Of a stretch of DNA of 64,000 nucleotides, positions 1,497 to 64,000 are shown piece after piece; positions within the stretch are counted from its first letter, which is position 1; every line of letters starts with the position of its first letter. The translations under genes and the position numbers were made by a program. The DNA comes from a virus. The DNA is taken from positions 51,583 to 115,582 of IMG/VR virus record IMGVR_UViG_3300048011_000525. One strand, written 5' to 3'. The notes below the pieces were generated by a model. The model saw only the letters and a program-made list of their open reading frames with translations. It ran no database searches and had not been told where the DNA came from.

Positions 1497-4400
1497 TTAC
1501 AGTCCTGCTATCTCACCAGTGTTTTTCAAGCGTAGTGGAACGTAAATAAATTCAACTGCTTTCACTGGTTCAATTGCTATATCTAAATACAGCTCGTTTC
1601 TATCGATACGTGCCGGTGTGTTATTGCTTTCGTCACATACTACTAAGAAGTCGTATAGTGCTCTAGCGCCAACTAGCTCTAGACATAAACTCTCTGCTGC
1701 CTGTTTGATTTGATCACGTGTAATCTTATCGTTTGGCTCAAAGATGTAAGGTTTAGCAAGTTTGTTAAGTTGGCTACGTAAGTAGATAACCAAACGTGCT
1801 ACGTTAATTCTATCTAAAGAACTAGCACCTCTTGCACGAGTCTTTTGACCGTAGTTAACAAGTCCTGCTCCGTTGATAAATGTAATCGGGTTAACGTTAA
1901 CACTGTATAGCGTATCACGCTGTCCTTCGTTTAGTGCAACACTTGTAAATTCGCCTTCGGCATTAATATAACCTGTTGCTGTTGCGTTAGTAACTCCACC
2001 GCGTCTTGTACCTGCTGGTGCAAACCATGGATAAGAAACTTGATCGCTTAGTGCAATAGTGCGTAGCATCATGTGACTTGGTGGAACAACTACGTTGTTA
2101 CCTGCGTTATCACTTGTGAAGCCTGCTGGGTAGAAGATACCTAAGTATTCATCTCTACTAACTAAGCCGTCATCGTTATCTTCAACTGCTAGTGCAACGT
2201 TCTGACCCCACTCATTAAGTGAAGTAGCGTCTGACGCTAATCTAAATGGACTGTCGCCTACAATAAATGCACTTAGTCCTCTATCATAGTTTAGGCTTAC
2301 CATTTCGCCAATTAGCTCTGGATAACCTGGTGTTGCCATTATGTTAAACACTCTTGATTCGTCATCTCTGATTTCATCGTTGCTGTTAACCATTGATTGT
2401 AGCTGCTGTACAACAACCTTACGCTGTGCATGACGTCCAAAACTACCTGATCCATCTTCTTGGTTAGCTGATTCAGTAACCCAACGGTCAGTTCCGTATC
2501 CACTCATGCTTACGTCACCCATTCTGCCGTTATCAGCAGTTGTATCAATGTAGTTACGTACATATTTCTTAACGTTGAATCCGCTACGTCTCATGTTCCA
2601 TAGCAACATACCTTGTGGATATAGTGCTGGATCTGGAGCATCTGGATCTAAGAAGTCGCTTGCGGCTAATTCTGCAATAGTTGCTTCTGTGCCGCTTCCG
2701 TCTGTACTCCAACGTGCATCTGCAAATAGTACACCGTCTTCTGTGGTTTGATCTGATTTATCAACTAAATCCCACTGTGTAGTGCCGCCGTTGTAACGAT
2801 AAATTGTTGGATAATTTTCTAAGTCAGCTGTGCTTACCCAAATGTCTTGATCAGTTGGGCTGCTTGGCTCAGTTGCTGCTGTAGTAACACCTGCTAACGG
2901 ATGTAGAGTGTTGTATCCTACCCATGTAGTACCATTGTGTACCATCATGTCAACTTCGTCAACAACTGAACTATACCATAGTGTACCGTCTGCTGTTGTT
3001 GAGGTCGGAGCATCTGCTGATGCTGTAAATGTATCTAGTACTGCCCAGTTACTAACACCGTTTGTTGGAGTTATACCAATAGCTGCTAATGCGCCATCAG
3101 TATCAGCCATTTCAATGTCGCCGCCCAACTTGTGTGAAATAGTAACTTTATCGTTTGCATCTACTGAAGCAACAATATTAGTAAATCCTGAACTATTAAT
3201 GGCATCGGCCATGTCATCAGCATCTGATGCTGCGCCTGCTGCTGTAAATGTTATAGTTCTTGTGCTTACTGTAGCATTTCCTACAAGTGTTTCTGATAAA
3301 TTAAAGCTAACTGAACCAGCACTAATTTGTGTTGCTACTGCATTTGATGTAACAGAACTTGCACCTGCTGCACTTCTTCTAAATACTTTAAATTCAGCTA
3401 GTGGGCTTGCTGCTTCTGTCCAGTTAGACTGTACATACAAGTCACCAATTGGTAAGTTAACTCCGCCGCCTGTTTTGTCTAATGCTACAAGTGCTGCTTC
3501 ATTATCAGCATAAATTGGTGCGCTTACTAAGTCCCATAGTGCAGTATCAGCATTCCAAGTTTTAATTCTCCAACGTGCGCCGCCATTTGGTTCTGTTGTT
3601 TTAACCCATACACTACCTGTTGGGCGTGTGTCGGTTCCTGAAGATTTGTACTGCGGTACACTTGTATGAGGTGCAATAGCTAGTTTTGGAACTGCATAAT
3701 TGCCAATTGTAATACCTAGTGTGCCTTCTAAATCGTTGTTTCCTGCTTTTACTTCAAGCGTTGTAGCAACAGTTCCGTCATTTAAAATAGCAAGTTGATC
3801 GTCAATATTTGCTAATGAAACGCCAGTACTTGTTAGTACACTATTACCGTTTGAAACAATATCAGCCAATGTAGTTGCTGCGCCGCCTGATGCTGCTGCT
3901 GTAATTGTGTAATCACTACCAGAAACATTAATAATAAATGTATCTGTATCAAGTAGTCCACTTGTAACTGCTTCAGTTCCTAATACGCTCGGAGTAGAAC
4001 CTACCCAGTCATCTGATCCAACTTTAACCCATGTACCTAAATAATTTTTCTTGTACACTGCATATGATGTAGTTTGTCCTGCAACAATAGCATAATCGCC
4101 AATTGCGCCTACTGATCCTTTTGGAGCTCCGCCGCTGAGTTTGTCAGCATCAGTAATAATCATTGGACTTTGTACAGAGAAACTTTGTCCGCCTGCTGTG
4201 GTTGCTGCTTCGCCATTCCACTCAAAAATGCCAAATGCTGTAGAAGCTGTGTCTACCCAATAAGCGCCATCTGCTGGATCGCCTGTTGGTGCATCTGCTG
4301 TTGCTTGTAGTGCGCCTAAGTCTACATCTGCTCTTACAATCCAAGCTCTATTACTTACACCTAATAGTGAGTAAGCTGCTTGTAGTCCGTATTCATTAAG

Positions 4401-53126: not shown

Positions 53127-56100
53127 TTAGCCAAAGATTAGCGTATATTCTAAAAGTAAATCATCGAATTCTGCTGCGCTAATTGATTGCTGAATCCCGG
53201 CAGAAGTAACAAACTGAGTGCCGTCCCATACTTCTAATACGTCTTGGTCAGTATTCCAACGTGTTGTACCTACTTCAGGAGTTACTGGACGTTCAGATGA
53301 CGTACCGTATGGTATAACAACAGAGTTTCCGTTAAATTTAACTGCGCCGTATAAGTTATTTTCAAATGTTAATACTGCATTAGAATTATTTGAAATAGTT
53401 CCTTGTGATATTGTAATATCATCTAATAATAGTTCACCAGTTCCGTTTGCACGTAAGACTAAGTCAGTGTTAAGTGTTGAAATAATATTATTTTCTAGTT
53501 TTATATCATCAATATTTAATTTAGTAACATTAAGTCCAAATTCGTCAATTGACGCAGTTTGTACACCGTTGGTATTAAATATTAACGTATTATTTGTAGG
53601 ACTAGCTAACACACTTGTAAGTTTGTTACTAGAATAAATACCGGCAAACGTAACTAAATTATTATTTTTGTATGCTTGAAAAAGATTATCAGTAGAATTA
53701 AAGCGCAATCCGCTATCAATAAGTTGATCTTCAGACGCTGTGCCAACTGGTATTACAACAGCTCCATTACTATCAAATGTAAGATTATTATTAACATCAA
53801 GTGTAATATCAACACTGATAGTACTCAATGTGTCTGCATTTAAGAACAAATCTTGTAAAACAATATTGCTGCCTTCACTAGGACGCAATTCTAAATTACT
53901 GTTACTATCTGTTGTTGTAATAACGTTATCAAATAATTGTATGTTTGAACTTAGTTCAAAGTCTTCAAAGGTAAATGATGTATCAATTTTAATATTAGAT
54001 GCATTAAGTATTTCTGTTGTTACATCATTGTCTACTTGCATGTCGGTACCAACTACTTCGACTACTCCGGCGCCTTGTGCTGATAATTCTAAATTAGAAT
54101 TACTGTCTTGTGAACTAATAACATTTGCATCGAACAACACATCCTCTAACTGTAAATCGTCTTGGATATTTGATGTGCTAACAGTTACCGTACCTACAAC
54201 ACTCATATTACCTACTTGTGTTCTGTTGCCAGTTTGTGTAATATTACCTACAATGTTAGTATTATCAATGTTAGTTGTTCCATTTACTGTTATATTATTA
54301 TCAATGTTAACATTGTTAGACGGAACATATACTAATTTGTTTTCAAATGCTCTTAATTCTAAATTAGCATTTGATAATGTAGTAGAAATATAGTTATCAT
54401 CGAGCGTTGTTGTATTTGAAGCTGTTAAGCTAGGTGCAATAATAGTAGATGAAATTAAGCTAGATAATGTTGTGTTTCCTATGACATTTACATCATTAGT
54501 TATACTTACATCAGTATTTGAAAATAATACACTGCTAGTTCCATTTGCACGTAATTCTAAATTAGGATCAAAATAGTCTCCGTCAAATAATAAGCTATTA
54601 AAATATCCAGGTGTTGCTGTTTCTATATCTATAATTTCATCTAATACAGATTTAATAAAGTTGTCTAGTGCAGTATTTCCTGTAGTCCCATTTGCAATAT
54701 ACTGCAAGTAAGAAATATAATCGCTAGTAGTGTTTGTTCCGCTTTGATTCACGTCGACGTAGTTATTATCTATAAAGAAGTTAACGAGATTCTTTTCAGT
54801 CTGACCTATAAAGTCGACTGCTGTAAATCCATTAATAATAGATTGCACAATACTAGGAATACTCTCTGCTTCATTACTTGCATTTGACGGGCGTAATCCT
54901 TCTCCAAAGTTACGAATTATGTTTTCATCAATATTAATGTTGCCGCCGGACATTTCATTACTTACTAATAAATCGCCAGTAATGTCAACGTTACCTGTTT
55001 GTGTATTATTACCTATTTGTGTAGTTTGGCCTGTTTGTGTAACAGAGTTAAAACTAGCCTCTATTGGATTAACTTCGGTTACAATTCCTATATCTTCAAT
55101 TGTAGATACTGTATCCCATTCAACAATGGTATTTACAGCTCTAAAAATAATATCAATAGTATTACCTTGTGGAACAAATGAAGCTGTTAATACTTGATCG
55201 TCAAATAATCCACTAGACTCATTCCACTCGTAAAGTGTACCAACACCTGATTCAAATACTCTTAGATAAAAGGAATTAGAGTTAGAAACACTTTTAAATC
55301 TTGCTTGAAAATCATAAGTACTTCCTGGCGTAACTGTTATTTCTTGAGATACGTTACGTGCTGCACCTGTTGCATTTATTTGCAATCTACTGTTTATACT
55401 TCTTGCACTTCCGCCGCCTGATTGATCCCAGTTATTTAAATTAGTATCAAAAGTTCCATTAATTACAAGTTCTGGACCGTATTTGTAAAATGTTCTACTG
55501 TTTCTTAAATTTGTAAATCCATTTATATCAAGAGTGTTGTCAATCAGCATAGTGTCTTCAACATATACACTGCCGGTTCCGTTTGCACGTAATTCTAAAT
55601 CTAAATTACCATTATTAGTAGTAATATAATTCTGAGTTATTGTAAGGTCGCCTACTAATGCTTCATTAAACTGTGTTTGAGACGTGACATTAATATTACC
55701 GTTGTTGGTAATATTATTAACAGCTAAGTTATTATTAATTTTTACATCATTATTTGGAACAAGTATTTCACCAGTACCCGAAGCACGAAGTTCTAAGTCT
55801 GTGTTTGTACTTGTAGTTGTAATGACGTTGCCGTCAAACAATATTTCTTCAAACCGTGCTTGACTACCAATATCAATATCTCCAGGGACACTATAGTTGG
55901 TAAGAGTATAATCACCAATTTGAACTCTATCGCTAATATATCTTAGTAATCCAGTAACATTTGTATCTCGTAAGTTTGTTGTTCCGTCAACTGTTAGATT
56001 ATTGTTAATTTGAACATTATTGTTAGGAACAAGTATTTTACCAGTTGCACGAAGTTCTAGATCACTGTTAGAAGTTGTAGTTGATATAAAGTTATCTTCA

Positions 56101-58811
56101 ATTGAAATATCACCGTTTGATATTTCTCCAGCAATATCTAAGTTGCCAGTTTGTGTTCTATCACCAGTGTGTGTTACAGTTCCAGTAATTGTAGTATCTT
56201 GTAAACTAGTTGCGCCACTTACAGTTAAATCCTGTGTAATTTCAACATCGTTAGCGTCAACGTTAATGTCGCCTGTTGCACTTAATGTTAAATTACCTGT
56301 AGTAGTAATAAAGTTATCTTCAATATAAAGATTGCCGTTTGTCCATTCACCATTTAGCGTAACATTACCTGTTTGTACAGTGTCACCAATGTGTGTTAGT
56401 TCGCCAGTAATTGTAGTACCTTGTAAATCAGTATCGGTGCTAACTGTTAAATTGTTATCAATCTGTACATTGTTGTTAGGTACTAATATCTCTCCTGTGC
56501 CACTAGCACGTAATTCTAAGTCTGAATTGCTATCAGTACTAGTTATGAAGTTATCTTCAATAAGAATATTGCCATTACTAATTTCACCAGCAATGATATA
56601 GTTGCCAGTTTGTGTTCTATTACCTACATAAGTTATTGTGCCTGACAGTGCAGTACCTTGCATATCTAGTGTGCCGGCAACTGTTAAATTGTTATCAATT
56701 TGTACATCATTGTTAGGTACATAAATCCTATTTGTAGAACGTAAATCTAAATTTGCATTACTAATGTCAGTAGTAATGTAATTTTCGTCAATTGTAATAT
56801 CATCAATTTCTGCACGATCTACATTAATGTTTGCCCAAGGGCGTACTTCTTCACCTAAATTGTGTGTTAGGGTAACGTGCGGTTTAAAATCTTGTTCTAA
56901 GTCTACATTAAAAGTTAATGTATCAGCAGCAGTATCTCTTCCTGGTTGATTACCTGCGATGTTTAATGTGCCGCCAAAACTAAAATCATCTCTAATATCA
57001 AGACTACCAAATATATTAGTATTGTTATTAATATTCATAGTATCAGTAGCAGATACTAAATTTAGATCTCCTGTCGGGGTGCTAATAGCGTTATTAGCAA
57101 TTGTAATATTACCAGTAGTAACTTCTGTACTTGAAATAACTGTAGTATCGCCGCCGGGGCTAACAATTCGTAATCCTTGTAGTGCATCAATATCAGCTGT
57201 ATCGATATTAATACTAGAATTTCCTGACTCTAAATCTACAAAGAAATTGTCTCCAACTCTGAAGTTACCTTTTTGATCTGTACTAACAAAGTGTATTTGT
57301 CCTGAGTTTAACTCAACAATTTCATTTGCTTGAATTACATCTTCTTGATCATTGTCGCTTTTATTTCCAGCGCCAATATAACCAAAGTTGTGTTGTATTA
57401 GATACATTAATGTATCTGCACCATCTGCTACAGCGCCGTAAGTACCGTATACGTTTGCTGACCCTATTGAACGTAGTTCTGCGCCGCCGCTTATTCCTGC
57501 AAATGCATAAAGGCCTCTGTTAGCATAATATGTAAACGAGTTAAGCCATTCTACTCTAACATCGTTTGTCATGTTAATTACATCAGCACCAGGACTAATA
57601 AACGTACAACTATGGAACAACATTGATTTGTTAACTGTTGCTGCATTCAATTCATTACCGTCAATCCAAGCACCGCGTCCTGCATCTCCTGCGCCTTGGC
57701 TAGTTTCTTGTGTTATTACAGTTACATTTTGAATGTAAGGGCTTCGTTCGCTCATTACAGCATCAGTAGCAAAACGGAAAGCATAACCTGTATTGTTTAC
57801 ACTATTGTAATAATAGTCTTTGATTGTTAAGTTTGCTATTAATGTTTTATCACTTAAATGAAAGACGTCTTCACTTTGACTACTAGTATCTGCTATAATT
57901 GTTGTGTTGCGTATATCTTGGCCAATAACACTAACATTGTTAGGCACTACTAACGGTAGAGCTTCTTGATAGTCGCCTGCTGCAACTAAAATAGTAAAAG
58001 GCTGATCACTACTTGCTTCTGCACGTGAAAGTGCTTCAGATATTGTTGCTAACGGATCAAAAATATGATCTCCACTATTTGCATCATTACCTTCTTGTGC
58101 AACATAAATTATGCCGCCGTGTTTTGTAAGTAAATCTACTCCATTTAGTTCGTAACCACTAACAGTAACACTAGCACCGTTTACTAAGTTTGTATATAAT
58201 TCTGTCCAGCGTTTTTCTGAAGTTCCTAAACTATATAAATCAGATTGGTCTGGAATAATATTACTGTCAAGATCTGTTTCTAAAGTAACAGTGTCTGTAT
58301 CTGAATCGCCAAATGTAATATTGCCGTCGAACGTAATATTGCCTGGAGTATAAATATCTCCAAATACATTTAAATTACTTAATACTTCAGTAGTACCAGT
58401 GCCGTTTGGAGTTAGATCAATGTTAGCATTAGATAATATTGTACTAACAATATTATCACTAATACGAATAGTTCCATTTTCCATATTAGCCATAACAATA
58501 GCTTCAGATGCATTTAAATAAATGTCGCCTACAAGAACTCTAAACGTGCTATCTGTAATTTCAAAACCCGGAGTAGTTGTTGATAAAGATGCTATTAAAT
58601 TTGTAGTTTGTAAGGTTTGAGAAATTTGCAGTTCACTAGCAGGGGCTTCTAAGTCAACACCTATACGGCCGTTAGCAACATCTACTTTTAATAGAGTTGT
58701 GTCGCTATTAGTATTTTTAAAACTTAAATTTTGTTGGGTATTATTAGCAATGCCTTGTCTTAACAAGTTTGCTTCTAATAACGATCCGGATATTCTACCT
58801 ACTTGTGCCAC
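53127..58811 (-). CDS. Long fibre-like protein (1894 aa), paralog of the 1739-aa protein; GTG start
   Basis: AQVGRISG..L..NL.R.G N-terminus shared; same repeats; RVEWLNSFTY.ANR shared; TAAATA at 58833-38 and AGGAG SD. Confidence 0.72.
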   Translation of the reverse strand: MAQVGRISGSLLEANLLRQGIANNTQQNLSFKNTNSDTTLLKVDVANGRIGVDLEAPASELQISQTLQTTNLIASLSTTTPGFEITDSTFRVLVGDIYLNASEAIVMANMENGTIRISDNIVSTILSNANIDLTPNGTGTTEVLSNLNVFGDIYTPGNITFDGNITFGDSDTDTVTLETDLDSNIIPDQSDLYSLGTSEKRWTELYTNLVNGASVTVSGYELNGVDLLTKHGGIIYVAQEGNDANSGDHIFDPLATISEALSRAEASSDQPFTILVAAGDYQEALPLVVPNNVSVIGQDIRNTTIIADTSSQSEDVFHLSDKTLIANLTIKDYYYNSVNNTGYAFRFATDAVMSERSPYIQNVTVITQETSQGAGDAGRGAWIDGNELNAATVNKSMLFHSCTFISPGADVINMTNDVRVEWLNSFTYYANRGLYAFAGISGGAELRSIGSANVYGTYGAVADGADTLMYLIQHNFGYIGAGNKSDNDQEDVIQANEIVELNSGQIHFVSTDQKGNFRVGDNFFVDLESGNSSINIDTADIDALQGLRIVSPGGDTTVISSTEVTTGNITIANNAISTPTGDLNLVSATDTMNINNNTNIFGSLDIRDDFSFGGTLNIAGNQPGRDTAADTLTFNVDLEQDFKPHVTLTHNLGEEVRPWANINVDRAEIDDITIDENYITTDISNANLDLRSTNRIYVPNNDVQIDNNLTVAGTLDMQGTALSGTITYVGNRTQTGNYIIAGEISNGNILIEDNFITSTDSNSDLELRASGTGEILVPNNNVQIDNNLTVSTDTDLQGTTITGELTHIGDTVQTGNVTLNGEWTNGNLYIEDNFITTTGNLTLSATGDINVDANDVEITQDLTVSGATSLQDTTITGTVTHTGDRTQTGNLDIAGEISNGDISIEDNFISTTTSNSDLELRATGKILVPNNNVQINNNLTVDGTTNLRDTNVTGLLRYISDRVQIGDYTLTNYSVPGDIDIGSQARFEEILFDGNVITTTSTNTDLELRASGTGEILVPNNDVKINNNLAVNNITNNGNINVTSQTQFNEALVGDLTITQNYITTNNGNLDLELRANGTGSVYVEDTMLIDNTLDINGFTNLRNSRTFYKYGPELVINGTFDTNLNNWDQSGGGSARSINSRLQINATGAARNVSQEITVTPGSTYDFQARFKSVSNSNSFYLRVFESGVGTLYEWNESSGLFDDQVLTASFVPQGNTIDIIFRAVNTIVEWDTVSTIEDIGIVTEVNPIEASFNSVTQTGQTTQIGNNTQTGNVDITGDLLVSNEMSGGNINIDENIIRNFGEGLRPSNASNEAESIPSIVQSIINGFTAVDFIGQTEKNLVNFFIDNNYVDVNQSGTNTTSDYISYLQYIANGTTGNTALDNFIKSVLDEIIDIETATPGYFNSLLFDGDYFDPNLELRANGTSSVLFSNTDVSITNDVNVIGNTTLSSLISSTIIAPSLTASNTTTLDDNYISTTLSNANLELRAFENKLVYVPSNNVNIDNNITVNGTTNIDNTNIVGNITQTGNRTQVGNMSVVGTVTVSTSNIQDDLQLEDVLFDANVISSQDSNSNLELSAQGAGVVEVVGTDMQVDNDVTTEILNASNIKIDTSFTFEDFELSSNIQLFDNVITTTDSNSNLELRPSEGSNIVLQDLFLNADTLSTISVDITLDVNNNLTFDSNGAVVIPVGTASEDQLIDSGLRFNSTDNLFQAYKNNNLVTFAGIYSSNKLTSVLASPTNNTLIFNTNGVQTASIDEFGLNVTKLNIDDIKLENNIISTLNTDLVLRANGTGELLLDDITISQGTISNNSNAVLTFENNLYGAVKFNGNSVVIPYGTSSERPVTPEVGTTRWNTDQDVLEVWDGTQFVTSAGIQQSISAAEFDDLLLEYTLIFG

Positions 58812-58843
58812 TCACTATTCTCCTTGACACAGTATTTATTGAA

Positions 58844-59359
58844 TTACTTGTCTAGATTGTGTACCACTACAACTGGCTTGCCTGCGTCTATAGGGCTTGC
58901 AAATTCAATATACCATCCAGGAGGTTTTCCTGCTGGATTTTGTACTACATCATAGTTAGTTATTGGAACTTGTACAACATTTTCTACAAATACAAGAATT
59001 TGTTGTGGAGTAGTTGGGTATGGAAAATCTGGATCTTGACTGTTTAACGTTCCAAACACTGTTTCGATTGCATCGCCATTACCTAAGTTTTGCCATATAA
59101 TGCCGGGGTCTCTATTTGGTTCTTTATAACGTATTTGTCTCCATGCATCGTCTTGATACACTTCAAATTCGCTTACATCTGTGTTGTAACGCATATGTCC
59201 ATTTTTTGGAAACTGTGGACGAGTTTCTGTAGGTCCTTTAGGGACAAGAACAACATTTTCACTGTCAAGAATAACTTCTTTATCAACGGCAGTTACGTGT
59301 ACGCCTCTGCCGATACCAAGGCTTCTAGTGTTTGTTGTTTGTCTCTTAATATACTTCAT
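58844..59359 (-). CDS. Virion structural protein
   Basis: VPKGPTETRP..GHMRYNTD module plus ILVFVENVVQ.P..NY domain. Confidence 0.55.
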   Translation of the reverse strand: MKYIKRQTTNTRSLGIGRGVHVTAVDKEVILDSENVVLVPKGPTETRPQFPKNGHMRYNTDVSEFEVYQDDAWRQIRYKEPNRDPGIIWQNLGNGDAIETVFGTLNSQDPDFPYPTTPQQILVFVENVVQVPITNYDVVQNPAGKPPGWYIEFASPIDAGKPVVVVHNLDK

Positions 59360-59703
59360 TAGACTTCCATATAACTTACGGTTGCTGTAATATTAGTCGG
59401 TGATGTACTTGATGCTCTAATAATATCGCCTGCCTCAAGTATAATTTTTTCTTCGTTAAATGTAAATGTTTCACCTGCAGGAATTGGAATATTGTTTAGT
59501 ACCATATTGTCTACTCCTGCTGCTACACCGCCTGCACAAAAATGCACGTCTAAGTATGAGTCGCCGCCGTCTGTGTATATTTCTTCTTGTGGGTTAACAG
59601 CAACATTACAAAACAACATAGCAGTTACAGCCCAGCTTTTGCCTGCTGGTACTTCTAATATGCTTGTATCTCCGCCGCCAACTTGTGTTGATTGTATTGC
59701 CAT
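59359..59703 (-). CDS. Small beta-rich virion structural protein
   Basis: VPAG..WAV...FCN, IPAGETFTF..EKIILEAGD. Confidence 0.55.
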   Translation of the reverse strand: MAIQSTQVGGGDTSILEVPAGKSWAVTAMLFCNVAVNPQEEIYTDGGDSYLDVHFCAGGVAAGVDNMVLNNIPIPAGETFTFNEEKIILEAGDIIRASSTSPTNITATVSYMEV

Positions 59704-59712
59704 TTTTTCTTC

Positions 59713-60783
59713 CTAAAATATCATCGAAAACAATAATGCTTTCTTTTTACTTACCAATTCGTCTTGTGATCCGTAGCCGTTAACGAAATACAAACTTGTA
59801 CCCCCTACACCTTCTTCTCTACTAAAGATTTTAATGCCGTCTACAGGTGCATCTGGATTTAATTCGTCAGTGTCTTCGCCGAATGCAAACGTACCGCCTG
59901 CTGCGCCGTCATCGCCTTGATAAGGTCCTTCTGGAATATAAAGTACGTCATTAATTTGTACATTTCCTACACCGGGTGCTTTAAGCACTAAGTCAGTATT
60001 ACTTGATGTTGTTTCAATAGTTGTATCTTGTATTCTTAAGTGTTGCAGTTCTGTTCTATCGTTAAAGAAAAATGCTGCTGGATTATTATCAATAGTAAAT
60101 TCAATAGCACTTACTGCGTTGCCGCCGTCTGTGTCATGGACAGCAACATACGTATCATCGTTTTCAATTCTTGACTGGAACTTACCAACAAAGAAACCTT
60201 CAACATAGTCTTCTAATCCTTGTGCATTAATTAATGCATCATCGTATCCTGCTTTGATAATAGGATTAGCTGCAAAGTCTACAATATCGTTAGTCGGATT
60301 AGCTGGATCAGTAGTGTATTCGAATATCTGTTTATGATATTCATTACATCCCTGTACTGTAACTACACCAGTGCCTTGACTTACTAAATTTAAGTCTGCG
60401 CCGCCTGTGTTAATGCTTGTGGTTCTAATTCCTACAATTGCACCAGTTTGTGCGTTGCCGATTCTTCCTACAAATGCACCAGCACCGGGTGCTTGTGTAA
60501 CAATCCCTTCATCAAATGCCCAAAATGCGTCTGAGCCGCCTCTGTCAATTTGTATACCTGCAACATCATTAGTAATTTGGCCGCCGCTAACATTATCTTG
60601 ATTTACAGTAATAAATGGATCGTCAACACTTAGCTGAGTGCTGTTTATAACAGTTTGTTCACCGTCAATTTGTAAGTCGCCCATAATTCTTACTATGCCG
60701 CTGTTACCTGGATCAAGACGAATTTCTCCGCCGTCGGTTACTGTAACTTTATAATCACCACTTACATTTAAATACTTTGACAT
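59713..60783 (-). CDS. Fibre-related structural protein
   Basis: GDLQIDGEQTVINST.L.VDDPFI.VN, AGIQIDRG, NTDLVLKAPGVG repeat variant. Confidence 0.6.
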   Translation of the reverse strand: MSKYLNVSGDYKVTVTDGGEIRLDPGNSGIVRIMGDLQIDGEQTVINSTQLSVDDPFITVNQDNVSGGQITNDVAGIQIDRGGSDAFWAFDEGIVTQAPGAGAFVGRIGNAQTGAIVGIRTTSINTGGADLNLVSQGTGVVTVQGCNEYHKQIFEYTTDPANPTNDIVDFAANPIIKAGYDDALINAQGLEDYVEGFFVGKFQSRIENDDTYVAVHDTDGGNAVSAIEFTIDNNPAAFFFNDRTELQHLRIQDTTIETTSSNTDLVLKAPGVGNVQINDVLYIPEGPYQGDDGAAGGTFAFGEDTDELNPDAPVDGIKIFSREEGVGGTSLYFVNGYGSQDELVSKKKALLFSMIF

Positions 60784-60795
60784 TTATTAATTCCT

Positions 60796-60825
60796 AAAAA
60801 GTAGTAGGGGATTGCTCCCCTACTA
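60796..60825 (-). terminator. Hairpin/terminator after the 134-aa gene, abutting the next gene's SD
   Basis: Minus strand TAGTAGGGGA-GCAA-TCCCCTACTA-CTTTTT then AGGA..ATG. Confidence 0.75.
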
Positions 60826-60833
60826 TTCTATTC

Positions 60834-61238
60834 TTAGTCAGCTTCGAAATCGTCAGCACCTGTGAATGAATCATCAGTACCAGCTTCTTCCATTTCAACT
60901 GCGCCGTCAGCATTATCATCACTAAAGTTCCAAGCAATACTTGTGCCTGTATCTAGTGTAACTTTACGTCCTGCAATTTTAGTTACTTGACGTGCTGTGC
61001 CGCCATCGTCTTTAACTGTAATAGTCATATCGCCTACTGCTAGAGCACCTTGCGATACATCTGCTAATGTGCAATCTTCTGTGTTTGTGCCGTCTGTGCA
61101 ACGGAACTTTTTGCTTCCTAATTGCTTTACAATCCAACCGTTTGCTTCGGCTTGTCCTGTTGCACGGAAACGTACTTTAATTTCGTTACCGCCAACTGTT
61201 GGCTCTCCGAAAAATCTTTTGTTAATTGGTCTTCCCAT
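60834..61238 (-). CDS. Hypothetical, probably abundant virion protein
   Basis: MGRPINKRFFG..G.IVKQLGSKKF; own late box (61334-39), AGGAG SD and downstream hairpin. Confidence 0.6.
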   Translation of the reverse strand: MGRPINKRFFGEPTVGGNEIKVRFRATGQAEANGWIVKQLGSKKFRCTDGTNTEDCTLADVSQGALAVGDMTITVKDDGGTARQVTKIAGRKVTLDTGTSIAWNFSDDNADGAVEMEEAGTDDSFTGADDFEAD

Positions 61239-61344
61239 TTGTTTTCTCCTATAAAAAGTAGTCCTATGCCCGTTCTATGGGCTACGCTGTGGTGCAGCAT
61301 AAGTCCGCCTTGCGGCACACTATCTGACATATGTATTTATCAAA

Positions 61345-61375
61345 TAAGAAAAAAGCCCGCATAGTGGCGGGCTTT
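61345..61375 (-). terminator. Intrinsic terminator downstream of pqqA
   Basis: Minus strand AAAGCCCGC-cactat-GCGGGCTTT-TTTCTT. Confidence 0.85.
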
Positions 61376-61430
61376 GTTTACTCGCAATCTAATGTTTCTA
61401 TTAGCTTGCTCATATCTATTTTTGATTCTT

Positions 61431-61502
61431 CTACTTGTTCATTACATACATTGTTACTTCGAATCCGAATCTCATCTCTGTTGCTGTTGGTTTTGTCCAC
61501 AT
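61431..61502 (-). CDS. pqqA: Pyrroloquinoline quinone precursor peptide (23 aa), below the ORF-track cutoff
   Basis: Hand translation MWTKPTATEMRFGFEVTMYVMNK*; MW.KP..., GFEVTMY with the E-x-x-x-Y core; AGGAG SD 6 nt upstream. Confidence 0.93.
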   Translation of the reverse strand: MWTKPTATEMRFGFEVTMYVMNK

Positions 61503-61545
61503 AGTGTACTCCTAAAATTAAGTTAATAAAATTGTACTGCAATAC

Positions 61546-61561
61546 TATTTAAACATATTTA
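61546..61561 (-). promoter_or_regulatory. Tandem late boxes upstream of pqqA
   Basis: TAAATA at 61556-61 and 61546-51 on the minus strand; AT-rich context weakens the call. Confidence 0.55.
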
Positions 61562-61586
61562 GAGACAAAAATCATCCGTAAAATCA

Positions 61587-61682
61587 TTAAAGATATATAC
61601 GTTTTAATAAAATATCATTTATTTTTTTAATATGGTGCTGTTTGATTAATTGCTTGTAGCACCAAAGGGTATAGTTAGTCAT
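61587..61682 (-). CDS. 31-aa basic peptide downstream of the glutamine riboswitch
   Basis: MTNYTLWCYKQLIKQHHIKKINDILLKRIYL*; strong GAGGAG SD. Confidence 0.65.
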   Translation of the reverse strand: MTNYTLWCYKQLIKQHHIKKINDILLKRIYL

Positions 61683-61708
61683 ACACTTCTCCTCGTTAAA
61701 GTTAAAGT

Positions 61709-61751
61709 GCGTTCCTTCGCAATATGCTACTTCCGTCCCGTAGGATGAACG
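61709..61751 (-). ncRNA. Glutamine riboswitch (glnA RNA motif, glutamine-I class)
   Basis: Minus strand CGUUC-A-UCC(UACG)GGA-C-GGAAGUA-GCA(UAU)UGC-GAAG-GAACGC: P1 CGUUC/GAACG, P2, P3 and the GGAAGUA/GAAG junction of the glnA motif as recalled; TAAATA at 61758-63. Confidence 0.82.
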
Positions 61752-61766
61752 TAATATTATTTAGTC

Positions 61767-61794
61767 AAAAAAAGGGCGACCTAAGCCGCCCTTT
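61767..61794 (-). terminator. Intrinsic terminator of the major capsid gene
   Basis: Minus strand AAAGGGCGGC-ttag-GTCGCCCTTT-TTTT. Confidence 0.88.
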
Positions 61795-61818
61795 AATGCT
61801 GTTATTACCTAAGTAATA

Positions 61819-62997
61819 TTATGAGAACGTTACGTTACTCATAGTTACTGTACCTAGATAATCCGCTGCGTTACCTAAAGATGACGCAGTGTTGTTTAGC
61901 TCAACATAACCATAACGTGTCATGAAGCTAACAACTGGCTCAAAGCTATCTGGGTCTAGTACTACACCGCTGCTCATCAATGGGATGTATGGGCAGTAGA
62001 ATGCAGCAGCATCTGACTCTGAAGAACCTTTGTAACCAACTAGTACGTTGCTGTCGTCAGCACTGTATGTGTTTACATAGATTTTCATAGCATTGTTCAA
62101 TGTACCAACAAACTTAGTGTTTGTAGGTGCTTCAAACGAACCTTCAGTTGTACGTGCAAACGCTGAAGTAGTTGCTGATTGTAGAACAGTTAGTGCCTGT
62201 GGAGACACAACAGCCCAGTTACCAGCGCCACGACGTGTGCGTTGTGCAATAGTGTTTGCAACACGGTTGATTTGAACAGCTAGTGCAGCATGTTCATCAC
62301 CAACGAATGTAGCTGTACCACTAACACCTGCTTGGTTGTATGCTTCTTGATTTGAAGTTCCTGCTAGTGAGTTAAGTGATCCTAGGACCTCTTGATCAAT
62401 TTCAGCAGTAATTTCTTGTGCTAAAGCAGCCATAATTTCAGCTTCAACATCGATGCCATGCTGTGACTGTGCGTCTTGCGCAGCCTCAAATGTCCAACGA
62501 GCTGATAGCTTACGTGATTTAGCTTCAACAGTTTGCTTCAAGATTTGGATGCTTAGTTTGTTACCAGCATTACCTTCTAGTGAAGCAGTTGAATCTGCTT
62601 TACCAGTTCCAGCACCTGAGTACTGTTCTGCAATCTTGAATGGGCTTAGTGCCTCTTCACCAGATACAGTAGTTTGTGCTGCATCTGCTGAGTTTGTTAC
62701 AGCGTCCGCATAGCGAACACGTAGTGTGTGGATTTGGCCCACTGGACCTGTCATAGGTTGTACACCTACCAATTCGTTTGCAATAACGGTTGGCATTACA
62801 CGTCTAATGACTGGTAAAATAACACGATTAAGTGTTGCGACATTGCCTGCAGAAGTTGCTCCAGCTGTAGCCGACTCTGACAAATACTTACGAGTATTTT
62901 CAAGAGTACTTGCCATTACAGATTTTTTATTACCTGTTAAGCCTTCTAATAGAGCACCTTTAGTCTCCTGCCAGCGACTTTCTAGTAGTTCCGACAT
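61819..62997 (-). CDS. Major capsid protein (T4 gp23-like)
   Basis: RRVMPTVIANELVGVQPMTGPVGQI, VEAKSRKL.A.WT.E.AQD, EI.AEIDQE, TRRGAGN, GYKG..E.DA..FYCPYIPL, F.TRYG. Confidence 0.96.
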   Translation of the reverse strand: MSELLESRWQETKGALLEGLTGNKKSVMASTLENTRKYLSESATAGATSAGNVATLNRVILPVIRRVMPTVIANELVGVQPMTGPVGQIHTLRVRYADAVTNSADAAQTTVSGEEALSPFKIAEQYSGAGTGKADSTASLEGNAGNKLSIQILKQTVEAKSRKLSARWTFEAAQDAQSQHGIDVEAEIMAALAQEITAEIDQEVLGSLNSLAGTSNQEAYNQAGVSGTATFVGDEHAALAVQINRVANTIAQRTRRGAGNWAVVSPQALTVLQSATTSAFARTTEGSFEAPTNTKFVGTLNNAMKIYVNTYSADDSNVLVGYKGSSESDAAAFYCPYIPLMSSGVVLDPDSFEPVVSFMTRYGYVELNNTASSLGNAADYLGTVTMSNVTFS

Positions 62998-63011
62998 TTT
63001 AATCTCCTTAA

Positions 63012-63998
63012 TTATATTCCAGCAAGACGTTTAAATTCAACCAAGTTGTCTTTTGTTGCGTCTGCTTGTCTACTAACGTTAGTTTGTGAAACTTGTTCAC
63101 GATTGCCTGTGATTTCTTTGCCTTCTGTAATTTTAGCCTTTTTGGCTGGAGTGTTACCGTCAATAACCGCCGGTAGGTACTTGTCAAACGACTTACGTAA
63201 GTTAGCTGTTTGGACAGATTCCAGTAAATCCATCATGATTTCTTTCTGATCATTGTTTAGAGGACCAGTTAGTTCATTAATTACATCTTTGCGCTCTGCT
63301 GCTTCAACTAAACGCTTCTTCTCAGTTGCCTGAGCTTCTGCTAATGTTTTAGCTTTAGATGCAAATGCTTTTGCTTCTGCTAATTGTGCGTCCTTAGCTT
63401 TAAGAACGTTCATTAGTTTGGCTGTTTCTGACTTCTCGTTTAAGTAAGAGCCAGCATATTCAGAAGCAAATGCTTCGAATAGTTTGCGACCGAAGTCGTT
63501 TCTACGTGCTTCTTCAATATCTTCTTTAAGTCCGCCGATTTCACTCTTAAGAGCTTTATCAACTGTCTCAGATACTGCTTTAGCACTTCTTTCGATAAAG
63601 TTAGTTTTAACTTTAGCGAAGTGTGTCTTAGCTTCACGTACTAAACGTACTTTTGTTTCAGCTAAGTCTTTCTTATCTTCATTGAATTCTGCAATTTCTT
63701 TTGCAAGTGCTTCAACAACAAATTCTTCAAGTTTTCCGAAGTTTTCAGCCATTGCTTTTTGATCTTCATGTAGCTCACTAACTTCTTTAGTTAGTTGCTC
63801 CATAACAAATCCTTTTAGTGTTTCAGCATTTTCACGCTGAGCTACTGCATACTTTGCACGGGCTTCTGCTAATTGCTTACGATCTTCAGCAAATTCAGCA
63901 ATTTCTTCTGCTAAACGCTCAGATACTAAAGAATCAATAGCTTCAACCATTGTTCCTTTATCATGCTCGTATTTTTGAGCAAATTCTTCACGTAGTTC
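63012..63998 (-). CDS. Prohead core/scaffolding protein (gp22-like), 5' end outside the window
   Basis: E/K/A-rich coiled coil just upstream of the MCP; frame stays open past 63950 (..ELREEFAQKYEHDKGTMVEAID). Confidence 0.8.
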   Translation of the reverse strand, partial: ELREEFAQKYEHDKGTMVEAIDSLVSERLAEEIAEFAEDRKQLAEARAKYAVAQRENAETLKGFVMEQLTKEVSELHEDQKAMAENFGKLEEFVVEALAKEIAEFNEDKKDLAETKVRLVREAKTHFAKVKTNFIERSAKAVSETVDKALKSEIGGLKEDIEEARRNDFGRKLFEAFASEYAGSYLNEKSETAKLMNVLKAKDAQLAEAKAFASKAKTLAEAQATEKKRLVEAAERKDVINELTGPLNNDQKEIMMDLLESVQTANLRKSFDKYLPAVIDGNTPAKKAKITEGKEITGNREQVSQTNVSRQADATKDNLVEFKRLAGI

Positions 63999-64000
63999 AG

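Follow-up and report, generated by a model that had tools for sequence, protein, structure and literature searches.

We found that a short element behind the major capsid gene of an uncultured phage is, by family membership, a type-1 (glnA-motif) glutamine riboswitch aptamer, and that the 3′ tail starting at its linchpin C, rather than the 5′ strand of the aptamer, hides the ribosome site of the gene that follows. The regulated gene most likely encodes a conserved, unannotated 31-residue helical micro-protein. It is probable that the element is a functional glutamine riboswitch at the 5′ end of a short late transcript, and that it works as a translational ON switch through competition for the linchpin C. 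Neither the riboswitch class nor its occurrence in phages is new, and the likely ON logic was known before; the analysis adds the correct anti-Shine-Dalgarno (anti-SD) strand, supported by covariation, comparative evidence that the aptamer is promoter-proximal, and identification of the likely target as a conserved micro-protein that annotations have missed.

The aptamer and its transcription unit

The window, which is the whole stretch of DNA that was analysed, is the last 64 kb of a 115.6-kb viral contig in IMG/VR. The completeness of this contig was estimated by CheckV as about 33%, and therefore the source is a jumbo phage. Giant structural ORFs of 4021, 2620, 1739 and 1894 aa at 26956-58811(-), each with a TAAATA box ahead of it, are consistent with this. 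The phage is a large uncultured aquatic jumbo myophage. The features of the riboswitch unit are given in Table 1; the terminator of the major capsid protein (MCP) gene shields the unit from the MCP transcript.

Table 1. Features in and around the riboswitch unit, in window coordinates.
Feature	Position	Strand	Comment
Major capsid gene (MCP)	61819-62997	minus	PF07068 Gp23, 337 bits
MCP intrinsic terminator	61771..61794	minus	10-bp stem, 6 G-C, then T run
TAAATA late-promoter-like box	61758..61763	minus	context gaCTAAATAa
Glutamine riboswitch aptamer, type 1 (glnA RNA motif)	61709..61751	minus	RF01739
SD-sequestering hairpin (expression platform)	61684..61709	minus	predicted fold and covariation
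Shine-Dalgarno AGGAGAA	61687..61693	minus	5/7 bases paired within hairpin
31-codon ORF (MTNYTLWCYKQL...)	61587..61682	minus	riboswitch-linked micro-protein superfamily, predicted single alpha-helix; AUG 61682-61680
Two further TAAATA boxes before pqqA	61546..61561	minus	likely pqqA's own promoters
pqqA, 23 aa, PQQ precursor peptide, own SD	61431..61502	minus	PF08042
Closing intrinsic terminator	61352..61375	minus	ends ~400-nt unit

An earlier note, made from the letters of the DNA, had described a 43-nt glutamine aptamer with very short P2 and P3 and had suggested a check with the Rfam glnA model. It was found that RF01739 (Glutamine riboswitch) matches 61706-61753(-) over its full length (model positions 1-53) with 50.4 bits, above the gathering score of 35 (E 4.4e-8 for the whole window and 3e-9 locally), and that this is the single copy across the 115.6-kb contig. 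The anatomy and coordinates that had been described were correct, the 43 nt being a core of 42 nt plus the linchpin C. P1 is CGUUC/GAACG (61751-61747 with 61714-61710), P2 is UCC/GGA (61745-61743/61738-61736) with a closing UACG tetraloop, J2/3 is CGGAAGUA (61735-61728), and P3 is GCA/UGC (61727-61725/61721-61719) with a 3-nt loop. After P3 come GAAG and then the linchpin C at 61709.

The conserved junction bases CGUUCA, ACGGAAGUA and GAAGGAACGC are all intact, and the glutamine-clamping GG, placed by alignment to the consensus, falls at 61734-61733. The roles of the J2/3 GG and of the linchpin C have been described (PMC11477058, PMC6212724), and the assignment of the G-C linchpin here follows such secondary accounts together with the alignment to the consensus. 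Among the matches listed, 99 unique aptamer cores found in IMG/VR with the same pattern were 41-59 nt long; the 42-nt core is at the short end of this range and is not unique, and the word "minimal" is a fair description of it. In 47 relatives, P2 and P3 are each 100% paired, and in each stem two pairs have changes on both sides, whereas P1 is invariant in these relatives, which is uninformative and partly forced by the search pattern. We infer that the aptamer binds glutamine.

The minimum size of P2 and P3 for the class might suggest a relic that no longer senses glutamine and is a mere stable 5′ structure of a constitutive late mRNA. This is highly improbable, because all of the conserved junction positions are kept, the score is 15 bits above the cut-off, and many diverged relatives have the same minimal form, their stems covarying and their linchpin C invariant. 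Such recurrence points to selection on the fold and on the competition for the linchpin C described below.

The TAAATA box ends 6 nt before the first P1 base. T4 late promoters have TATAAATA at -13 to -6, and by analogy the transcript is predicted to start at about A61752, one base before P1. The box is present beyond chance. In the window, 14 of the 38 minus-strand TAAATA sequences lie in the intergenic 4% of the DNA, ahead of structural genes, and TAAATA is 14-fold enriched in these minus-strand spacers; the other strand of the same spacers holds only 2. The distance from these intergenic boxes to the next start codon is 20-60 nt, and the genes concerned are structural ones, including some of tail-fibre size. 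Among the matches listed, TAAATA was found within 45 nt upstream of 39 of 99 unique related riboswitch loci, compared to 3.4% of random 45-nt windows holding it anywhere, and it ends 5-8 nt before CGTTCA in 36 of the same 99 loci, with a mode of 6. In a second set of loci, found from the micro-protein (see below), TAAATA is at 5-6 nt in almost every locus. The recurrence of this spacing supports the earlier note, which had placed the aptamer about 6 nt after TAAATA, where a late-type transcript is predicted to begin.

The usual contexts of the box in relatives are ACTAAATA and TATAAATA, and the box in this window is CTAAATAA. The full T4 octamer TATAAATA was not enriched in the contig, and a search of the contig (about 33% of the genome) for a gp33-like co-activator gave no match to the gp33-like protein of phage Melnitz. 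Since the boxes stand in front of structural genes, the timing is presumably late.

The window has one more structured late leader. This is a freshwater-2 RNA (Rfam RF02980) at 61236-61319(-), with 66.1 bits relative to a cut-off of 49.9, which begins about 14 nt past another TAAATA box and stops at the AUG of a 134-aa gene (60834-61238). The freshwater-2 motif is also found 340-540 nt downstream of the micro-ORF in loci L129, L136, L137, L140, L142 and L163. The post-capsid slot in this phage lineage is a cargo hot spot, which accommodates more than the riboswitch module: in one relative (L135, 1635-1839) a manA RNA motif, and in L140 and L142 (1775-2000) three tRNA genes, precede the freshwater-2 leader. 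An 11-codon ORF (MSKLIETLDCE) is located at 61382-61417(-), between pqqA and the closing terminator.

A hairpin anchored at the linchpin C

The predicted hairpin over the ribosome site consists of an outer helix, 61709-61704 with 61689-61684 (C61709-G61684, then A-U, C-G, U-A, U-A and U.G), and an inner 3-bp helix, 61701-61699 with 61694-61692. The first pair of the hairpin uses the linchpin C and its last base is 1 nt before the AUG; most of the AGGAGAA bases (Table 1) and the entire spacer, up to 1 nt before the AUG, are buried in it. In the unconstrained thermodynamic ensemble, bases of the SD and spacer are paired to the 3′ tail with probabilities of 0.89-0.99. In the unconstrained minimum free energy structure, P1 gives way to an alternative helix between the 5′ strand and J2/3, and when P1, P2 and P3 are enforced the best structure (-15.6 kcal/mol) keeps the SD hairpin.

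The earlier note had given the role of anti-SD strand to the 5′ strand of the aptamer, such that without glutamine UUCAUCCU (61749-61742) would pair with the SD, and ligand-stabilised P1 and P2 would withdraw this strand. The use of the P1 5′ strand as an alternative partner is a frequent riboswitch design, and the complementarity of UUC(A)UCCU to AGGAGAA is indeed present (7 pairs and one bulge). However, this long-range helix, taken in isolation, contributes -2.0 kcal/mol, relative to -7.8 kcal/mol for the local hairpin, and in the ensemble the SD and spacer are paired >94% with the 3′ tail and <1% with the 5′ strand, the probability that any SD base pairs with the 5′ strand being 0.00-0.02. 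Across 47 related platforms the 5′-strand helix was 80.4% paired, as opposed to 79.3% for shuffled columns and 89.4% when slid by +1, which is the level expected of a pyrimidine tract facing a purine tract. Furthermore, the 3′ tail still sequesters the SD with P1, P2 and P3 enforced; since the hairpin coexists with the folded aptamer, stabilising P1 and P2 alone would not free the SD. Neither the proposed strand nor the proposed means of release is supported by these results, and we regard sequestration by the 5′ strand as very unlikely.

For comparison, IMG/VR was scanned with an exact pattern of the aptamer core, and at least 120 contigs matched. Among the matches listed, a helix of at least 5 bp that is anchored at the linchpin C and reaches the SD region was found at 69 of the 100 unique terminal aptamers of phage loci, whereas permuting the tails and SD regions among loci gave 35 +/- 3 loci with such a helix, with a maximum of 45 in 1000 permutations. 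In a MAFFT alignment of 47 unique platforms, two pairs of the hairpin columns change on both sides (21 cells), and the co-changes include CACCU/GGGUG, CACUUU/GAAGUG, CAUCU/AGAUG, CGCCU/AGGUG and CAAUCU/AGAUUG. Pairing of the hairpin in these platforms was 96% at the true register compared to 30-56% when slid, a percentage that is inflated because the 47 platforms were selected for having the helix; the covariation and the permutation test on unselected loci are free of this bias. The C-G pair at the base of the hairpin is invariant in 47/47 platforms, and the partner of the linchpin C is 1-2 nt before the AUG in 41 of them. Other registers were seen in 37 of 84 unique platforms, and in some phage families the anti-SD strand begins 2 nt after the linchpin C (CUUUAC/GUAAAG).

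There is no intrinsic terminator between the aptamer and the 31-codon ORF, and control would therefore be translational. A translational ON platform, as the earlier note had it, remains the best reading of the element, given the tail hairpin over the SD and the match to the mechanism postulated for the Synechocystis gifB leader, and the switch most likely turns on the 31-codon ORF. In the model that we favour, C61709-U61704 would pair with G61689-G61684 in the absence of glutamine, burying the SD and spacer, and the ORF would be poorly translated. When glutamine is bound, G61733 (the second G of the ACGG junction) would insert at the base of P1 and pair with C61709, which would remove the closing pair of the hairpin and fill the space beside P1. 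The hairpin would then fray from its base next to the AUG, the SD and AUG would open, and the micro-protein would be made.

A review of crystal structures describes glutamine as wedged between two J2/3 guanines, with G23 inserted and paired with C60 (PMC11477058). For Synechocystis gifB, a helix was postulated between the ribosome-binding site (RBS) and the stretch that starts at C68, which glutamine would melt (PMC6212724). Because G61733 and C61709 are equivalent to the known linchpin pair, and C61709 also closes the hairpin, competition for C61709 is most likely. In the nearest-neighbour model, loss of the first pair of the hairpin costs 2.9 kcal/mol, of the first two 4.3 kcal/mol and of the first three 7.0 kcal/mol, and the hairpin without the C-G pair alone is still computed to be stable, at about -4.9 kcal/mol; opening would therefore depend on tertiary constraints beyond nearest-neighbour folding. 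The ON direction is taken by analogy from structural and reporter work on cyanobacterial homologues. In that work, reporter expression from the gifB leader and from a Prochlorococcus glutamine-II leader went up after ammonium addition (Klahn et al., PMC6212724).

The hairpin does abut P1 (G61710 and C61709 are contiguous), and the computed state with both aptamer and hairpin gains stacking energy. This would suit an OFF switch, in which glutamine stabilises P1, the SD hairpin stacks on it coaxially and sequestration tightens; a structure of glutamine-II, from Huang et al. in 2019, is said to have been argued to sequester the RBS on binding. An OFF switch is nevertheless unlikely. In the bound type-1 aptamer the linchpin C is paired with the junction G and is not available to close the hairpin. 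In Synechocystis, reporter fusions of either aptamer type respond to added ammonium with higher expression, and the invariance of the C-G pair at the hairpin base in all 47 platforms is what competition for this C predicts.

The micro-protein and its pqqA neighbour

The 31-codon ORF and 18 ORFs behind other phage riboswitches can be aligned without gaps, with 26-81% identity. They share the pattern [YFW]xxW[CMVT][YF][KRQT].., and most have His 16 and Leu 25. The invariant residues of the 19 homologues are M1 and W7 alone, and the length across the family is 27-38 aa. Third codon positions account for 45.5% of pairwise differences, codon changes in close pairs are 179 synonymous and 205 non-synonymous, and the other two frames hold stops in 28 of 29 and 29 of 29 unique sequences. 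By these sequence measures, the ORF is a real coding gene under purifying selection.

A protein-first scan of IMG/VR yielded 56 micro-protein loci. RF01739 was directly upstream in 55/55 loci with enough upstream sequence: 47 of the loci match the strict aptamer pattern, and in the other 8 the model gives 46.9-48.9 bits at the same place. In these loci the peptide family and the switch always go together. A capsid gene 72-86% identical to that of the window was found just upstream in 50 of the 56 loci, and therefore the module holds a fixed slot in the whole phage lineage.

The 31-aa peptide had no Pfam or PHROG match and no usable match in the ESM Atlas, and a profile search found no PDB relative at E up to 10 save a chance match with E 0.31. 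A profile search of 1.84 billion representative proteins recovered 10 clusters, nine with proteins of 29-33 aa and one of 55 aa, which indicates that the family is rarely called by gene finders. The single obvious target at this locus is a gene that annotation pipelines have missed. A second riboswitch-linked group, with the pattern M..W..YC[RW][KR]..., is homologous (hhalign probability 95.7%, E 9e-9). When AlphaFold2 was given the family alignment, one helix was predicted, spanning residues 3-30, with a mean pLDDT of 90.

Two identities were considered for the peptide and rejected at the level of sequence profiles. A comparison with 13 riboswitch-linked IF7-like cyanobacterial peptides gave an hhalign probability of 0.25%, and an IF17/DUF4278 identity was set aside on the result of the Pfam and PHROG searches.

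The pqqA gene (MWTKPTATEMRFGFEVTMYVMNK) scored 40.7 bits for PF08042, relative to a cut-off of 21.1. There is no terminator between the 31-codon ORF and pqqA, and read-through from the riboswitch promoter into pqqA is possible. It could be proposed on this basis that the riboswitch mainly governs pqqA, for example by translation-dependent protection from Rho or decay, with the 31-codon ORF as a leader, and pqqA is within about 150-220 nt of the module in 12 pattern-derived loci (among the matches listed) and 13 protein-derived loci. However, pqqA is upstream of the riboswitch in 11 of these 13 protein-derived loci and downstream, as here, in 2; both orders also occur among the pattern-derived loci, and most module loci are without pqqA. 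In this window pqqA comes with its own pair of TAAATA boxes and with a strong SD, and the purifying selection on the peptide sequence would be needless for a mere leader. Control mainly of pqqA is therefore improbable, and pqqA is the neighbour of the module rather than the regulated gene.

Near-identical pqqA genes were found beside the riboswitch module, on either side, in many IMG/VR loci, and no pqqB-E genes were noticed among the ORFs at 55000-64000. Phages of methylotrophs from Lake Baikal are already reported to carry pqqA (PMC7678222). This report and the similarity to Melnitz described below hint at a methylotrophic host.

Relatives in phages, cyanobacteria and other genomes

Glutamine riboswitches have been published for Melnitz, the Pelagibacter phage Mosig, pelagimyophage MAGs and T4-like cyanophages (PMC9004378, PMC9964418, PMC9602691), and the class is already known as common in aquatic phages. 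In the Melnitz paper, the riboswitch was read as controlling ssrA, and riboswitches were called rare in phages (Buchholz et al. 2022, PMC9004378). The earlier note took the same view of metabolite-sensing RNAs, which does not hold for this class in light of the at least 120 IMG/VR contigs and the published phage cases. Glutamine riboswitches are among the few metabolite sensors carried by phages in large numbers.

The aptamer and platform of Melnitz (Methylophilales, OM43 phage) are 85.7% identical to those of the window. The Melnitz riboswitch scores 52.8 bits for RF01739 and has the same anchored hairpin, in the form CACUU/GAGUG. A homologous 32-codon ORF (MTLYQQWCYLKAQ...) begins 2 nt after the hairpin and is unannotated, and at the site of this micro-ORF GenBank annotates an opposite-strand 33-aa ORF. 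The Melnitz riboswitch and micro-ORF lie in 1500-1670(+) of MZ577097.1. The Melnitz module is directly 3′ of a permuted tmRNA gene, 8 nt past the end of the tmRNA match, whereas that of the window is behind the capsid gene, and it is without a TAAATA box, unlike that of the window. From the sequence, the target of the Melnitz riboswitch is probably the small ORF, and the published "riboswitch-controlled tmRNA" probably names the wrong target.

The positions of the module vary, in that it is behind the capsid gene here and behind tmRNA in Melnitz, and homologues occur in a few proteobacterial MAG contigs. This leads us to suggest, tentatively, that the riboswitch and the helical peptide of about 30 residues might form a self-contained, mobile sensor-effector module, shifted between genome positions by phages of marine and freshwater heterotrophs, the peptide perhaps representing a new glutamine-gated effector class whose target would be nitrogen assimilation in the host or some other process linked to glutamine. 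If the suggestion is true, the peptide would be analogous in function, and unrelated in sequence, to the cyanobacterial GS inactivating factors, and the tmRNA of Melnitz would be a mis-assigned target.

The proteobacterial MAG contigs L217 and L291 encode members of the micro-protein superfamily; their DNA may be that of a cell or of a phage binned with it. The general aptamer pattern matched at least 120 cellular genomes. Besides cyanobacteria, the matching assemblies include ones that bear the labels SAR86, SAR116, Pelagibacteraceae, Porticoccaceae, Rhodobacterales and other marine Proteobacteria, and some of the aptamers precede glutamine-synthetase-like genes, with long leaders. A scan of species-representative genomes for tails of the form CACYYWAAC, which covers the window-type CACUUUAAC and not the common CACCUAAC, gave no match, so tails of the window type are lacking there.

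The gifB (IF17) leader of Synechocystis sp. PCC 6803 (Klahn et al. 2018) belongs to the same Rfam family as the element in the window, and the two share the three-helix junction with its conserved bases. Their platforms also follow one logic: the ribosome site is paired with the linchpin C and the bases next to it, and the gene downstream codes for a small basic protein. In contrast to gifB, the window has minimal P2 and P3, the hairpin CACUUU/GAAGUG, and a downstream gene that is neither DUF4278/IF17 nor IF7-like, and it has a phage late-type box whereas gifB has a host NtcA-related promoter. Cyanobacterial leaders carry the same anchored hairpin as CGCCUC/GAGGCG, before YRG (DUF4278-type) and IF7-like small proteins. 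A structure of the type-1 aptamer of S. elongatus was reportedly described by Ren et al. in 2015. The comparative data presented here support, for phages, a platform mechanism that was merely postulated for Synechocystis gifB, and the locus is a clean minimal test case for it, with a transcript predicted to start at the aptamer and a closing C shared with the linchpin pair.

Glutamine-II (the Downstream-peptide motif, RF01704) has the same ligand as type 1 and a related core sequence. Its ribosome site lies within the aptamer pseudoknot and not in a separate hairpin. The RF01704 model does not match the riboswitch of the window, no match being obtained at E up to 1 in 59000-64000. The Downstream-peptide motif is typically found before very short ORFs, of 17-100 aa (PMC2864571).

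Other small proteins were found behind phage glutamine riboswitches in the IMG/VR loci listed. These were YRG-repeat (DUF4278-like) peptides of 16-59 aa, a 64-65-aa family with INGxGTSGY, a 46-53-aa family ending in NP[FY]YP, and a 32-aa MKTKNNWQL... family. Tandem aptamers were seen in many of the IMG/VR riboswitch loci, among the matches listed.
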